NCBI RefSeq assembly: GCF_006345805.1
Contig: NW_021823596.1
Location: 1 to 21,767 of the forward strand
Origin: Octopus sinensis
Lineage: Eukaryota
DNA: 21,767 nt
Reading direction: 5' to 3'
In this document: piece by piece, positions 1,882 through 20,636 of the stretch
How the letters are laid out: each line of letters opens with the position of its first letter
Position numbering within the stretch: position 1 is the first letter of the stretch
Notes under the pieces: model-generated
Database searches by the model: none
Seen by the model: only the letters and a program-made list of their open reading frames with translations
What the model was told of the DNA's origin: nothing
Translations under genes and position numbers: made by a program

Positions 1882-3068
1882 ATGGAAGCTTTGTGGACAA
1901 AGTATAAAACTACGGAATCAAAAAGCCTGCTTAAAAAATATTTGACTCAAGATCTCTACGACTCCCTTAAGGGACTTAAGACTTCTTATGGAGGAGAACT
2001 TTCAAATTGTATCACTCCAGGTTAGAATTAGCTTTTAATTTGTAAGGCCTAACTAATACCGATTCTCAGATAGGTATGTATGCTTGCGATCCAGAGGCCT
2101 ATACGTTATTTGGACCACTTATTAATTTAATTATAAAAGATTATCACAAAGTACGTGTACTTTTCAATTGCTTAGATAAGTAATTCAATAACACACCCTC
2201 AACCCAATTTTGGTAATTTGGACAACCTGCCATTTGGAGATTTGGATCCCGATAATAAATATATCATTTCAACACGTGTCAGAGTTGGAAGATCTCTTGA
2301 AGGCAGACCATTCCCGCCTCTTTTGTCAAAGCAGGTACATTTTACCTTGAAATATGTATTCGTAGGATAGACTTGATATGGAGAACGTTGTTAAGAAGGT
2401 TTTTAGTCAATTTACTGGCGACCATGCAGGGACATACTATGCTTTGTCCAATATGAGTAAAGAAGTCGAAAAGCAATTAGTCGAGGATCACTTTCTCTTT
2501 CAAGACGACAATAGGTTGTGTTTATACAATTTTTTTGATTTCTACGGACTGCCTGTGGATATAACCATTGGCCTGCCGGACGTGGAATCTATCATAATGA
2601 TTCCAAGACATTTCTGATCTGGGTCAACGAGGAAGATCATTTGAGAATAATTTCTATGCAAAAGGGAGGGAATCTTTCAGAAGTTTACAGGAGACTGATA
2701 GAGGCTTGCTTATTTATATAATTTTTGAAGGGAGTAAATAAATTTGGTGCCTGTGGGATGAATTTTGCTCATAACGAAAATTTGGGTTATTTAACGTATT
2801 GTCCAACTATTTGGGAACAACAATTCGTGCTTCTGTTCATATCAGAATCCCTTGGCTCAGTTCGCAGCCTAATTTTAAAGAAATTTGTGAGAAATTAATG
2901 GTCCAGCCTCGTGGTATTCATGGAGAGCATACCGAAAGTGTTGGCGGAGTTTACGATATATCGAATAAGCGAAGACTCGGCATTTCTGAAATTGACGTTG
3001 TAGCAGAAATGGCTAACGGGGTTAAGAGAATCATTGAAATGGAATCTTCAAAGAAAATCAACATTTAG
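1882..3068 (+). CDS. AK: Arginine kinase (phosphagen kinase), 6 exons; one apparent 1-nt deletion near 2809
   Basis: Spliced translation [80 protein letters not shown](N)[27 protein letters not shown]. Introns: 2021-2046, 2151-2175, 2335-2365, 2515-2537 (GT..TG), 2704-2730 (GC-AG). Confidence 0.95.
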
Positions 3069-5659: not shown

Positions 5660-6140
5660 ATGTTCTGTGATTCGTTGGGAAGCTGTGGTGGATCAGTGAC
5701 TAGTGTGGAATATAAATCGACACTATTAAAATGGACGAATTACATATACGGGTGGCAGGAGAGATACTTTATTTTAGAGAAGGGGAGTCTGAGTTACTAC
5801 AAAACGTGGGAGGACGTGTGTTATAGGACTCGTGGGTGTGTGTGAAGGAGGTGCAAGTGATAGTATGGTTGGTGTGTAATGCCAGTTGGACATATGGACG
5901 AAGGACACCGTGTGGTACATTCGAGCACGGTCGGTGGAGGAGAGGAATCGGTGGGTTGGCCTGCTGAACAGTTCGGTGGAGTCGGCGTATGGAAGTGAGG
6001 GGTCTCCACTCGGATGTGTTGTCCCGCGAAGGGAGGTGTTCCCTCTGCCCACAACTCGACTGGAGGGACAAGTACTACAGGGAATGAGAAAAGAACAGGC
6101 AACTGAGGAAACAACTTGCTGATCTATTCCACGACGAAGT
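5660..6140 (+). pseudogene. CERT1: CERT (COL4A3BP)-like PH-domain gene, N-terminal part, frameshifted
   Basis: LLKWTNYIYGWQERYFILEKGSLSYYK..RGCV, then DTVWYIRARSVEERNRWV..ESAYGSE and LRKQLADL, parallel the CERT PH domain and downstream ESGYGSE motif. Frameshifts near 5845-5880 and ~6005, TGA at 6085; no FFAT or START region seen. Confidence 0.75.
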
Positions 6141-6141
6141 A

Positions 6142-7580
6142 ACTACTCAGAGGACTGACATTACAGGGGGGACATTACTCCCCAAGTATACTACTCAGAG
6201 GACTGACATCACAGGGGGGACATTACTCCCCAAGTATACTACTCAGAGGACTGACATTACAGGGGGGACATTACTCCCCAAGTATACTACTCAGAGGACT
6301 GACATCACAGGGGGGACATTACTCCCCAAGTATACTACTCAGAGGACTGACATCACATGGGGGACATTACTCCCCAAGTATACTACTCAGAGGACTGACA
6401 TTACAGGGGGGACATTACTCCCCAAGTATACTACTCAGAGGACTGACATTACAGGGGGACATTACTCCCCAAGTATACTACTCAGAGGACTGACATCACA
6501 GGGGGGACATTACTCCCCAAGTATACTACTCAGAGGACTGACATCACATGGGGGACATTACTCCCCAAGTATACTACTCAGAGGACTGACATCACATGGG
6601 GGACATTACTCCCCAAGTATACTACTCAGAGGACTGACATCACAGGGGGGACATTACTCCCCAAGTATACTACTCAGAGGACTGACATTCACAGGGGGGA
6701 CATTACTCCCCCTCCCTACTACCAAGGATACTTACTCAGGAGAGGACTGACATTACACAGGGGGGACATTACTCCCCACTCCCCAAGTATACTACTCACT
6801 CAGAGGACTGACATTACAGGGGGGACATTACTCCCCAAGTATACTACTCAGAGGACTGACATTACAGGGGGGACATTACTCCCCAAGTATACTACTCAGA
6901 GGACTGACATTACAGGGGGGACATTACTCCCCAAGTATACTACTCAGAGGACTGACATCACATGGGGGACATTACTCCCCAAGTATACTACTCAGAGGAC
7001 TGACATTACAGGGGGGACATTACTCCCCACGTATACTACTCAGAGGACTGACATTACAGGGGGGACATTACTCCCCAAGTATACTACTCAGAGGACTGAC
7101 ATTACATGGGGGACATTACTCCCCACGTATACTACTCAGAGGACTGACATTACAGGGGGGACATTACTCCCCAAGTGGACTACTCAGAGGACTGACATTA
7201 CAGGGGGGACATTACTCCCCACGTATACTACTCAGAGGACTGACATTACAGGGGGGACATTACTCCCCAAGTATACTACTCAGAGGACTGACATTACATG
7301 GGGGACATTACTCCCCAAGTATACTACTCAGAGGACTGACATTACAGGGGGGACATTACTCCCCAAGTATACTACTCAGAGGACTGACATTACAGGGGGG
7401 ACATTACTCCCCAAGTATACTACTCAGAGGACTGACATTACAGGGGGGACATTACTCCCCAAGTATACTACTCAGAGGACTGACATCACATGGGGGACAT
7501 TACTCCCCAAGTATAAGTATACTACTCAGAGGACGACTACTCAGAGGACTGACATTACAGGGGGGACATTACTCCCCAAG
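6142..7580 (+). repeat. Minisatellite, ~30 copies of a 48-bp unit
   Basis: Unit TACTACTCAGAGGACTGACAT(T/C)ACA(G/T)GGGGGACATTACTCCCC(A/C)AGTA-like consensus, period 48 (actcag at 6145, 6193, 6241); noisy units around 6690-6800 and 7510-7540. Confidence 0.98.
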
Positions 7581-7584
7581 CTGC

Positions 7585-7940
7585 GTAGAATATCAAATTT
7601 TAAAGGATGTTTGACATGATAAAATCCCCGAAAATCTTCGAGGCACCGAAAATCTAGACTTATAAAGAAAATGGTGAATTTTACCATTATCAATGACAGG
7701 TATTGTAAATTTGCAATAAATTCACTGACTATCTTAAATTAATCATATCTTGCGAAAATGAAAACAAAATTGAGCTTGCCGCGAAATCATTACACGAGTT
7801 TTCACTCGGAGGAGTAAATAAAATTGAATATGAATTTCGACAAAGATAATTCACTGTAAAGAATGACATTGTCAGAAAAGTCATTTGAAATTGTGAAGTT
7901 TGCAAATTTTCCGTCCTTTAAAAGTTCAATATATTAGGGA
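7585..7940 (+). pseudogene. SCAND3/KRBA2-like integrase N-terminal (zinc-binding) relic
   Basis: AKSLHEFSLGGVNKIEYEFRQR*FTVKNDIVRKVI*NCEVCK fits a decayed H..H / C..C integrase zinc-binding domain. Confidence 0.6.
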
Positions 7941-13089: not shown

Positions 13090-13383
13090 CAGGGGTCTCC
13101 AAACTTTTGACAACGCGGGCCGGATAGAATATTTGGTAGATGACCGTGGGCCATAGTGTAAAATCAATTAGATTTAATAATGTTCCTAATTTTTTAACTA
13201 CGACTAAGAAGACAGAATAACAAAAAAAGATTTAAACATTAGCTTTTAATGAGAATGATGAAACTGACTTTTCGTTTTATATATTTTATTGTAATCAGGC
13301 GTCAAGTCTGTTGTCACAAAAAGATATTTACAACAGCCGGGCCGGATTAAATCACATGGCGGGCCGGGGTTTGGAGACTCCTG
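13090..13383. mobile_element. hAT Buster/Charlie-type MITE (294 bp)
   Basis: 15-bp TIRs CAGGGGTCTCCAAAC / GTTTGGAGACTCCTG (1 mismatch); exact 8-bp TSD ATATAGAA at 13082-13089 and 13384-13391; GGGCCGG subterminal motifs. Confidence 0.95.
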
Positions 13384-14650
13384 ATATAGAAGGTGGTATA
13401 CTCCAAGGCGACTCTCTGTCGCCCCAATTATTTGTACTTGTTTTGGATCCGTTAAGTAGACTTTTATCTTCAAAATATCCAAATATATCAATAAATTCTG
13501 GTGCCATTAATTCCTTAATCTTTTCTACAAATCACTTTCCATTCATTGCAGACTTGAAGCTATTGTCCAAAGAAGAGGAGACATTGGCGTGGATGATGGA
13601 CGATGTGAACTATTACTTTGAATTACCTATTGAGAAATGATGGTAAATTGTTGGATGGTCTGGACAGCTACAGATATTTGGGAGTTTTAGAAAACAGATG
13701 TAGTAAAGTACTCAAAGAAGACGTACTCAAAAATATTAAAGAAGAAATGCAAAACCGTATTGAAAAGTTATTGGAAACTAAATTAAACTCAGTAAATTTA
13801 TTTAAAGCAATCAATGAACATGCTCTATCACTGTGCAATTACTATATTGGCCTCATTGACTTAGAACCCTGTGAATTTGAAGAAATTAATAAATTAGTCA
13901 GAAAGATAATTATGAATTTGAATGTGCATATGAAACCAGCTTGCAAAGAAAGACTTTACTTACCGAGGAATATGTTTAGAAGGGGACTGATATCAATCAC
14001 TTTCAAAGCTGAGAAAATGTTGATTGATTTCAAAACAAGTCTGGAAAGGCGAAAACTTACTTCTCTGAAGAGTGCAGGAATTCTGTGGGCTGAACAACAA
14101 AAAAGTCACATATGGCCACAATTACAGAATTCTTGCAAATAAAATATGAATCAACCCAGCACATTGAACAGACACTAAAGAGTCTGCAGATTGAGTGTCT
14201 CTTATCAGCTATTAAAAAGAAAAGTCTCCATTCAAAATTATTTGAATCACTTTATAATGAGACTTTCGATTTACAGACATCCTCAAAATGAATTGTAAAA
14301 GGAAATATTTCCCCTAAATCTGAAGCCATGTTCTTCCTTCTGCAGGACAGAAATATTTTCTTCCGCGAGCTTGGTTCGAAATGACAGTCGACCATTTGGC
14401 AACTCGATGCAATAGAATGCTTAATTCTGATTATACAAGGAGACATAACGAAATTGTTAAATGCATACACATGCACCTATGCAGAAAATTTGGATTCAAA
14501 AAATCAAAAAGGTTAAAGACTCACTCTATTCAAACCGTAATTACCAATGATCGTGCTGAATTACGAGTTGACACTACTATCCATACCGAATTAAAAATTC
14601 AATATAACAAGCCGGACATTTTTTTATACGACAAAAAATTAAACCAGATA

Positions 14651-15459
14651 CAGTCCGACCCCGAATTGGGGCACCAAGTGCCCCAAAAAGCGGCGGTGCC
14701 CCAAAAACAGAGGTTTAATAAAAACAGAGATTTTAAACATCAAAAATCAATTTTAGAAAAATAATCAGTTAATTTATCCCCAGTTTTCCTTTTACTTCTT
14801 ACATTTTTCATAAAATTAAGTCGAAAATCGTAAAATTCTTTGAGCATTTCAGGAGATATGTGAAAATTTTCTTCTCTAACTGATCAAGAGAATCTTGCGT
14901 TTCTCTTAGAATTGTTTCCATGTTATCGTTTTCTAAACCTTCGTTATAAATATTATCGACAAATTCGTCATTTTCCCCATTCAATGTTTCGTTAACGGCA
15001 TTGTTGATTAATTCTTCTGTAATGCTATCTTCAATTCTTACGGAATCACGAATCTTTTCAATTTGTTAAACTTCGATCAAATTTTTCTCAGCTTTTAGAA
15101 ATTAGCAGAATTACCTGACGAAGGTTTATTTTGTTTATCGACCGTCATCATTCTCAAAGCACAAAAACTGAATCAGATAATTTGAGTAATAATCTTTAAA
15201 GGTTTTTCTCCCATAGAATTGCAACAAAGAAGCACGTTGACTCTTTCTTTTCCCTGTTTAAAGCTAAAAGTATCGTCATTTATTCGGACAAACGACTTTC
15301 TCGGTTTTTTTTATCATTCCCCACAATTTTATAGTGGCCCAAAATTTCCGTATTTTTTATCGATTTTTCATTTTACTCTGCCAAAATGTGGCCAAAAAAA
15401 AGTGCCCCAAAATGCGGGGTGCCCCACCCCTGGGGTCTGCCCCATTCGGGGTCGGACTG
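14651..15459 (-). mobile_element. Internally deleted pogo/Tigger-like transposon (809 bp)
   Basis: Perfect 16-bp TIR CAGTCCGACCCCGAAT, TA TSD (14649-50, 15460-61), GTGCCCC subterminal repeats; internal minus-strand GKERVNVLLCCNSMGEK resembles the pogo DDE_1 motif. Confidence 0.9.
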
Positions 15460-15896
15460 TATGGCTAATAGAGATTGAAGTGACGTGTGTGGATAATTTA
15501 AAAGCAGTTGAAGTTGAAAAACTTCATAAATATGATATCCTGGCAAGTGAATTAGAAACAATTTGCAAAGCCAAAGTCAAAATACTTTCGATCATCATTA
15601 CCTGGGATGCGATCACCTCCAAGTATTTTAAAATATACATGGATTTGATTGGCATTAAAGACAGTATTCTGGCGTACATCCAAACGATTGCATTAAAGAA
15701 GACGTTGGAAGGAATGTTCGTAGAATATAGACATGGTTTCGAAGACGTAATGACTAAAGCATTGATTCTCGACAAAGATTATGCAGTGTCGAACACTCGC
15801 CAAAGGGGAGCTAACTCAATGAAGAGGAGACATGATGAGATGACAGAAAACAAATACTCTGAGGAAGGACAAAATAATAGCAAGAGAACCACGAAA

Positions 15897-16149
15897 GTTT
15901 ATTTATCTTATCGCAGTTGAGACTTCCAGTTCCTTGGGCAGTAAGGCAATCAACTTCGTTCAGGATATCGGGTCCCGCATGTTTGCTCTCACAGGCGACG
16001 CCCGCGAATCAAGATGGTTTTACGAGCGGATATCCTTCGCGATAGTACGCTCTAATTCTTTCTCGATCGCGCCGGCTTCCCGTCCATGAAGCTTTCAACA
16101 CTTGACCGAATTCCTTTTTTTTGTAATAAACTATTCATACTAAAAAAAA
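15897..16149 (+). mobile_element. CRE-clade retrotransposon 3' end with short poly(A)
   Basis: IAVETSSSLGSKAINFVQDIGSRMFALTGDARESRWFYERISFAIVRSN...* (stop ~16088), then AATAAA and an A-run at 16142-16149. Confidence 0.75.
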
Positions 16150-17409: not shown

Positions 17410-18571
<1,162 letters not shown>

Positions 18572-18677
18572 TTGAATTGTTAATACTTTATATAATCAAT
18601 ATAATGCGGCTATTCTAAAAATATTTTTTATTATTAATAAAAAGAAACTAATTAATTCCCTAACTAAGTCCTGAGTT

Positions 18678-20074
18678 GTTTGCCTCTCAACCATATGTTG
18701 TTTAATCTTTTGAGCGTGAATGTTGCTAGTGATTTTCTTCGTATCATGTCTTCTGTATCTCCTAAGAGAGTGCCAAGTTTCTTTGTATGCCTCAATTTTT
18801 CCTCGTGTCGTTTGTCATATCGCCTCACTATAGTGTATTCTGTTTTCTCAGTGTTAATTTTTAGGAATGATTTTTCAAAAGTGTTGGCCAATTTGTCCAT
18901 AGTACTTTCTAGTTGGGGGTCTGTTGCCGTGAAATCTATGTCATCTGCAAAGATGACTTCTGTAATATTTCTGAGGATATTATTCCTGACATTTCGTAGG
19001 GTCGCCTCCAGATATACGATGAATAAGGCGTCTCCTTGGGGGGGTGCCCTTGTTTGTTTCAAATACTTTGGATTTCTGTTTTCCGAGCTGGATAAATAGT
19101 TGAGTGGAGGAGAGTAGGTAACGAATAATTCTGATGCAATCTTCGTCGAGTAGTGGCGTTAATATTTGTATCATCTTAATTCTACTGATTGAGTCGAATG
19201 CTTTAGATAGGTCGATTTCCATTATGTGGTACTCTTCTTTATATTTTTGGCATGAAGCACACATCCATTTGTGGCTCCAAACAGCATCGGAAGTTGATCT
19301 TCCAGAGACAAACCCACTTTGGCTGGATCCGATAAATTCACGTAGTGGGCCTTTAATTCTCTCCAAAGCGATTAGTGATAGAATTTTACAAAGTAAGTTG
19401 AGTATTATGATTGTTCTTAAGCTGTTTAGTTTTCCTTTTTCCTTCCCGGGTTTATGTAAGGAAATTAACTTTCCGATTCCGATGTTAATTTTGGCATGTT
19501 CTTCAAAAGTTTTGTTCAAGATGTAAGCAATAAGTTTTTGGAGCTCTTCAGGAGCATTTCTGCGTCTTTACAAATCAAACTTTACAATATGTTCGTAAAA
19601 CCAGTCCTACTGTACAACTCCTCTTGGGCTCACAGTGAAGGAAATAAAAAATCTGAATTTCTTTCACAGAATGCAGCTGAAATACATCCTAGGAATCTTT
19701 TGGCCAAAACGCATTTCAAACAAACATCTCTACTCCAGGTACAATGAACACCCGTTGGACAAAGAAATAAGAAGTAATAGATTGGCCTTATTCGGTCACA
19801 TCCTAAGAATGGACAGGAAAACTCCTGCAAATCTTGCAATGGAACACCACTACGCCCCCACCCGGGGACAAACTTCCGAGGAAGATCACGAATCACTCTA
19901 CCAACCCTCCTGCACCAGGACCTAACTTTGATTGGAAAAAGGCTGAAATTGAGTACTTGAGAGAACTATCGAGGAACAGAGGGACTTGGAAGCGATTAAC
20001 AAAACGCATCCAGGAACGGGTGGCACAAGCGAGATAACTTTACTAACGTTATTTTGCGGTGTGCTTAATAATAA
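18678..20074 (+). mobile_element. RTE/RTEX-like non-LTR retrotransposon, 5'-truncated with 5' inversion
   Basis: RT core on minus strand 19558 to 18676 (QSGF..GRST, IDLSKAFDSI, GTPQGD, IFADD, KINTEKT, KKLG). C-terminal continuation on plus strand from 19556 (ISASLQIKLYNMFVKPVLLYN, FGHILRM), (TAA)n tail 20066-20077, TSD TAAGTCCTGAGTT at 18665-18677 and 20075-20087. Confidence 0.92.
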
Positions 20075-20636
20075 TAAGTCCTGAGTTTCCAAAGTGAATA
20101 GGAAATGACACTTTACGCATTTTCTTCCCTTCTTCCTTCTCTTCTTGGCTCTGTAGACCTCCAATTAAATTTCAAGAAAGTATCTCCCTGCAGCAGGCGA
20201 TAGAACAGTCTGCAATTATTTGAGAACTTCTTTTAATAAACGAAAATCAGCTTCCCCTCTGCCCAGACACGACTCAACTCATTAAAATCCCATCTGACAG
20301 CTCGTGCTCGACAAAGTACAGTACTCACTTGACCCGAATCTTGACTCCATTGCTCACATCATTAATGTGCCTAGTCAGCGCTTGCAGCTCGGTTTTTCTT
20401 GCGGCTATCTTTGCGGAAATGTTTGGCCTCCACTTACTCTATGGCCCGAGCTTCTGCGTGATTTCTTCTTGCGTTGTCTGTGTTGAGTACAAATAGAGAA
20501 AAGTCTCGTTTATTTTCTCTGGAGCCTTACGCACAATATGGCACGATTGATGCAACATATAAAGTCAGTCCTGAATTGCCACCGATGTATTTTTCGTGTC
20601 ACTCTGCGCAAAGTTCAAAGATATGTATTGAGACAT
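20075..20636 (-). other. Possible intron-containing orphan host gene
   Basis: ATG at ~20636, GTAAGT and GTGAGT donor-like sites, coding-like stretches IAARKTELQALTRHINDVSNG and GGLQSQEEKEEGKKMRKVSFPIHFGNSG; I could not build a clean exon chain. Confidence 0.3.

Follow-up and report, generated by a model that had tools for sequence, protein, structure and literature searches.

The window, here the whole 21,767-nt stretch of contig NW_021823596.1 from the Octopus sinensis assembly, holds a non-LTR retrotransposon copy that is dead and 5'-inverted; the element is RTE-like with a single ORF, and the copy's inversion was in all probability (roughly 0.86) produced by twin priming during insertion. 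The geometry of the copy, the zero gap between its halves, the microhomologies at both junctions, the target site duplication (TSD), and the recurrence of this arrangement in at least six further, independent insertions are all observed. The insertion consists of the following parts, in window coordinates.

18665..18677, plus strand: left TSD, 13 bp, the last 2 nt of which (TT) are the outer microhomology with the element
18676..19557, minus strand: inverted segment, 882 nt, RT domain, 5'-truncated (element positions ~1536-2417 of 2939; P0002 aa 525-822)
19556..19557, no strand assigned: inner junction, AT, a 2-nt microhomology common to both halves
19556..20074, plus strand: forward 3' segment (element positions ~2418-2936), with the region past the RT, the end of the ORF, and a short 3' end
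20066..20077, plus strand: (TAA)4 tail, the final TAA overlapping the right TSD by 3 nt, at the putative first priming site
20075..20087, plus strand: right TSD, 13 bp, second copy of TAAGTCCTGAGTT

Exactly two copies of the TSD sequence, TAAGTCCTGAGTT, are present in the window (18665-18677 and 20075-20087), and the unit is bracketed by a 13-bp TSD and a (TAA)n tail, as an earlier, sequence-only reading of this DNA had described; a (TAA)n tail is likewise present in other copies of the family. The same reading had held that one RT ORF was split into opposed halves, which is borne out by the protein comparisons: RVT_1 is matched by both minus-strand frames of the inverted piece (E 9.8e-13 and 8.9e-7), and a tblastn search with the full-length relative P0002 placed aa 525-822 in the minus half and aa 826-949 in the plus half. 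Near 19038, a G run of the inverted segment carries a frameshift of 1 nt, and the forward 3' segment is disrupted by frameshifts. At the outer junction the inverted piece begins at the TSD edge with the 2-nt TT microhomology; neither this microhomology nor the frameshift near 19038 had been mentioned in the sequence-only reading. Element sequence to the left of 18665, which the sequence-only reading would have counted against itself, was searched for and none was found. The insertion lies ~94 nt upstream of the start codon of an LDH gene and may touch its promoter or 5' UTR.

Comparison with other family copies shows that the two halves are normally adjacent. A genome search with this region yielded at least 79 matches, which came from 40 of the 229 candidates, and 22 loci were then oriented. 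In all 15 oriented loci (of the 22 examined) in which the anchor was found, the order was ...GAGGCAAAC-AA-ATTTCTGCG..., with a gap of 0 nt. The contiguity predicted for non-inverted copies is therefore confirmed, and the halves are adjoining segments of one family rather than pieces of different families. One detail of the prediction did not hold. The inner microhomology had been given as ATT, but is AT only (19556-19557), 2 nt rather than 3; the family sequence at the inner break is AAATAT-GCTCC (K-Y-APEEL), and the 'N' of NAPEEL, previously assigned to the inverted half, therefore comes from the other half. Microhomologies and gaps here and below were judged by eye against copies that are 83-97% alike, which stand in for the true source element.

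The twin-priming model of Ostertag and Kazazian (2001), as described in PMC2912911 and PMC4245944, could produce this arrangement in a short series of steps. Before copying is complete, the endonuclease would make a nick in each strand, with 13 nt between the two. The bottom-strand end would pair with the UAA tail of the RNA (3-nt overlap), and ~520 nt would be copied, while the top-strand end (...GAGTT-3') would anneal through 2 nt to an AA inside the same RNA and prime a second cDNA, comprising the next 882 nt upstream and copied in the opposite direction. The two cDNAs would then be joined at the 2-nt AT match, followed by fill-in. This mechanism is deduced from insertion products alone, and the single 2-nt match is weak evidence taken by itself, since a TSD that ends in TT has a 15% chance of such a match. 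A snap-back of the first cDNA was considered and rejected, because it predicts a second copy of the forward piece, and what is inverted here is the sequence upstream of it.

The recurrence of such inversions was assessed in a census based on a 21-nt 3'-end pattern (up to 2 mismatches), which is blind to 5' structure. Its 86 matches fell into 61 groups by their flanks, and removal of L131 and L132, which are chance pattern matches on chromosome-scale contigs, left 59 distinct insertions; copies that are older or 3'-deleted escape the pattern (136 candidates otherwise), and the result is thus a sample. Eleven insertions were flagged as having an adjacent inverted piece. One of these, L034, was kept in the denominator and not scored as inverted, as its structure differs. 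Of the 59 distinct insertions, all of which retain an intact 3' end, ten are therefore 5'-inverted, and the window event is part of a family-wide pattern, a genome-wide count having been proposed with the original observation. With the window copy excluded, the proportion is 9/58 (16%, 95% CI 7-27%), or 6/58 on strict criteria. Inverted copies are more frequent among insertions of at least 400 nt (9/33) than below that length (1/26; Fisher p 0.03). Outside the pattern set, four further loci (L040, L080, L140, and L143) look inverted.

In seven inverted insertions (the window copy, L032, L036, L051, L066, L087, and L091), a TSD is present (8-15 bp) and the breakpoints are no more than 21 nt apart. 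In that order, their TSD lengths are 13, 11, 12, ~12 (one indel), 8, 11, and 15 bp, their breakpoint offsets are 0, -14, -13, ~-1, 0, +4, and ~-21 nt, and their outer microhomologies are 2, 2, 2, 3, 0, 5, and 3 nt. The outer microhomologies total 17 nt, compared with a null mean of 3.1 (p ~5e-6), and are at least 2 nt long in six of the seven; L066 is without a strict outer microhomology. All seven have their outer breakpoint precisely at the end of the TSD, and none retains a forward remnant of the element. The inverted pieces carry no tail of their own. At the inner junctions, the AT of the window copy is matched by microhomologies of 2-3 nt in L036, L087, and L091, while L032 and L066 have 15-16 nt of filler templated by nearby element sequence, which suggests that integration is completed by end-joining repair. 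The three remaining inverted copies (L043/L057, L052, and L117) have no TSD and gaps of 680-1100 nt, and need later deletions in order to fit twin priming.

Additional structural variation was observed in the family. L034 (G000:C9535:44770-47670) is full-length and has a single 12-bp TSD; its interior contains an unrelated repeat of 255 nt together with the first 63 nt of the element in inverted orientation, and a 20-nt element stretch occurs on both sides of this material. Twin priming alone is no explanation for an inverted 5' piece within a forward full-length copy. Internal deletions of hundreds of bases are found in L031, L032, L034, L035, L078, and L083, and several deletion ends lie near element positions 1540-1560 and 1900-1940. 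At the 5' junctions of L089 and L092 (G000:C8907 near 159350 and C11005 near 27980), two to three CCCTAA-like units extend from the TSD to the truncated 5' end, as if a telomere repeat could have been added to the cDNA end, although chance is possible.

The window insertion itself is present in other contigs. C9055, C8695, and C10659 contain it at ~97% similarity including the flanks (the alignment here used the L004 row), and a later 210-bp deletion has taken the outer junction. It is present twice in C2687, where two other deletions have removed most of the element and kept the outer and inner junctions. Counting the window's own contig, 40-mers across the outer, inner, and tail junctions are found in 2, 5, and 4 assembly contigs, respectively; the inner 40-mer is exact in C9055, C8695, and C10659 and has one mismatch in C2687. 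All five contigs with the insertion carry the inverted form, and those that repeat the junctions differ by 1-5% and by deletions of their own. Separately, a unitig of run X1 covers 20048-20400, that is, the tail and the right TSD; X1, X3, and X6 are one sample, which is possibly the source of the assembly. Among the unitig pieces in a filtered listing, none bridges the inner or outer junction, which speaks neither for nor against these junctions. A pattern search of the assembly with up to 2 mismatches gave 0 matches to the exact empty site. However, L114 holds a diverged empty homologous site (77% over 86 nt) in which the left flank is followed by a single TSD-like copy and then by the right flank, and in two contigs of run X1 the left flank is joined directly to right-flank-like sequence. 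A second, independent family insertion lies ~35 nt from the homologous target site (L114:4585-4705), which may point to a preferred target within a TAA-rich repeat.

Several other processes could generate a similar outline. Two RNAs could have been used at one site, either as transcripts primed from both nicked ends or as an opposed double insertion. This would predict the same outline and TSD, the inverted and forward halves of the window copy are 94% and 89% identical to L046, respectively, and the nearby second insertion at L114 indicates that the region is open to repeated hits. Under such a scenario, however, there is no reason for the pieces to meet, and yet in all seven TSD-bearing cases they come together to within 21 nt, in an element of 2.9 kb; the lack of tails on the inverted pieces also counts against it. 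Because the pieces adjoin in element coordinates, the use of two RNAs is largely refuted and is considered very unlikely. A similarly low and perhaps marginally lower likelihood is given to a later inversion, in which a collinear 5'-truncated copy was inserted first and its 5' part was flipped by break repair. These contigs are rich in rearrangements, as shown by the different deletions of the window insertion in C9055/C8695/C10659 and in C2687, and L034 contains an internal inverted piece. In contrast, a flip after insertion does not account for outer breakpoints that coincide with the TSD end and leave no forward remnant in seven of seven TSD-bearing copies, nor for outer microhomologies that match the TSD 3' end, as priming would predict, and the window insertion is inverted in every one of its five contigs.

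The least likely of the alternatives, and one to which hardly any weight is given, is an assembly or read chimera (fold-back artefact). The contigs that confirm the structure are all from one assembly, and the inner junction is known from contigs rather than raw reads. Nevertheless, the junction 40-mers recur in contigs that have diverged by 1-5% and acquired their own deletions, the X1 unitig crosses the tail and right TSD, and a fold-back duplicates sequence, whereas here the halves are without overlap and a TSD is present on both sides. Twin priming thus remains the best explanation of the window copy.

The element family is ~2.94 kb long, with a single 5' end common to L031, L032, L034, L051, and L040; the GC content of the family loci is 36%. 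Homology to the proteins P0002 and P0139 begins 57-70 nt into the TSD-bounded full-length copies L031 and L034, and therefore there is no room for an ORF1. The relatives are endonuclease-RT proteins of ~1000 aa on contigs of 3.1-3.6 kb. Pfam endonuclease models were matched by eight of nine relatives and by neither of the two broken N-terminal frames of L034; an RNase H model was matched by none of the nine, L1-type domains were likewise absent, and a C-terminal CCHC pattern was absent from all seven relatives checked. RTE-clade elements are not known to carry an RNase H or a C-terminal Cys-His motif. In an RT tree of 34 rows, 21 of them proteins from P0001-P0009 and P0130-P0155, the family falls in a 22-row group (96/93), together with single-ORF APE-RT proteins. 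Separate from it are eight zf-RVT-bearing RTs (100/99), which we take to be of Tx1/L1-type, and three DUF6451-bearing RTs of the same assembly, these three being the only ones of 14 DUF6451 loci with a long enough RT stretch. Similarly, L1 ORF2p scored 37 bits, compared with 152 bits for the best relative, even though the query used for that relative was shorter. By these sequence comparisons the family RT is placed outside the Tx1/L1-type group; a placement within L1/Tx1 had been named beforehand as an outcome that would speak against the interpretation. The curated TSDs (8-15 bp) and (TAA)n tails complete the description. Since the single ORF, the microsatellite-like 3' end, and a TSD range close to the 7-15 bp typical of RTE match the descriptions of RTE-clade LINEs of ~3 kb in PMC5389967 and PMC6007223, the architecture supports the designation of the family as RTE-like, which is to be read as an assignment by architecture and not by a tree with named RTE references. 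At 2.94 kb, it is slightly shorter than the anole RTE elements described there (3.2-3.9 kb).

Two genes in the window are relevant to the identity of the organism.

1883..3068, plus strand: phosphagen-kinase gene, with GT-AG introns of 25, 26, and 31 nt
17802..18571, minus strand: LDH gene, with a 26-nt GC-AG stretch that is missing in X3 and X4 contigs

The best named matches of the kinase exon are mostly molluscan, flatworm, and nemertean proteins (53-81% identity among the matches listed). According to the account in PMC13644364, introns this short are found among animals only in myxobolid myxozoans and a dicyemid, and a dicyemid genome is described in PMC6736024 as repeat-rich, with a mean intron of 38 bp. 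All 84 family 3' ends are on small contigs and none are on chromosome-scale contigs, while 139 of 150 zf-RVT matches are on C1-C29. Because the family is confined to small contigs, one of which has introns of 25-31 nt, it probably belongs to a dicyemid-like cobiont that was sequenced with its host. The family contigs resemble those of a micro-intron cobiont within a 2.7-Gb animal assembly. The proposal that twin priming operates in an RTE-type clade of this organism is therefore supported, inversion at the time of integration included, with the refinements that the organism is probably the cobiont and that the RTE label is one of architecture.

The window also contains other repeats. Decayed pieces of other non-LTR families are found at 20153-20600 (minus strand) and 13236-15920 (plus strand); the right-flank piece has many copies that are ~77% alike, with long RT-bearing ORFs, and its family is presumably R4/Dong-like. 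At 6088-7619 there is a tandem array of ~30 units of 48 nt with long open frames.

In comparison to known systems, the inverted copies closely resemble mammalian L1 inversions in their order of parts (TSD, inverted upstream piece, forward 3' piece, tail, TSD) and in their adjacent breakpoints with short outer and inner microhomologies; adjacent breakpoints, a TSD, and junction microhomology are the hallmarks given for inverted L1 in PMC2912911. TSD lengths are comparable, at 8-15 bp here and 10-20 bp for inverted L1. In that study, 639 of 2068 human and chimpanzee L1 insertions (30.9%) were inverted, versus 1 of 5554 Alu insertions, and the rate here is of the same order (10/59, or 9/33 at 400 nt and above), although the counting rules differ. 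Unlike L1, the family is 2.9 kb long and has a single ORF; it has neither an ORF1 nor a C-terminal CCHC (7/7 relatives), and (TAA)n takes the place of poly(A). In further contrast to mammalian L1, its RT is outside the Tx1/L1-type group, its host is an invertebrate, and in L032, L040, and L051 synthesis from the second primer reached the RNA 5' end. It does not join the DUF6451-bearing RTs of the same assembly either. As described in PMC4245944, inversions in cell culture were seen only with L1 in human cells, with one Nimb-2_DR insert as the exception, and inversion was proposed to depend on both LINE and host and to require a sufficiently long 3' overhang. That insert, obtained in chicken DT40 cells, is also 5'-inverted and comes from a non-L1 LINE with TSDs of ~12 bp. 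However, it was one engineered cell-culture event in another clade, whereas here at least seven natural, independent events are found in one family. In the available text of PMC4476161, twin priming is invoked only for snRNA-L1 chimeras, and the papers searched on twin priming yielded no report of frequent 5' inversion in RTE.

The mechanism is already known, mainly from mammalian L1; the clade, the host, and the rate are the new part, and the gain is in the range and rate of twin priming. Twin priming is likely to be frequent in this ORF1-less, non-L1 element. On balance, a slight preference is given to a broader reading, in which twin priming is no speciality of L1 or of mammals, an ORF1-less RTE-like element in a dicyemid-like micro-intron parasite inverts its 5' end nearly as often as L1 does (in about a quarter of copies of at least 400 nt), and the outcome would be set by the 8-15-nt overhang of staggered cleavage rather than depending on ORF1p, poly(A), or repair factors of mammals. 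The 8-15-bp TSDs agree with the overhang model of PMC4245944. If this reading is true, ORF1p and poly(A) would be dispensable for inversion, and the implication is that second-strand cleavage often occurs before first-strand synthesis ends in this clade. A natural single-ORF family with at least seven clean independent inversions separates the factors proposed in PMC4245944, and a 2.9-kb, one-protein element would offer a simple test system for the timing of cleavage.
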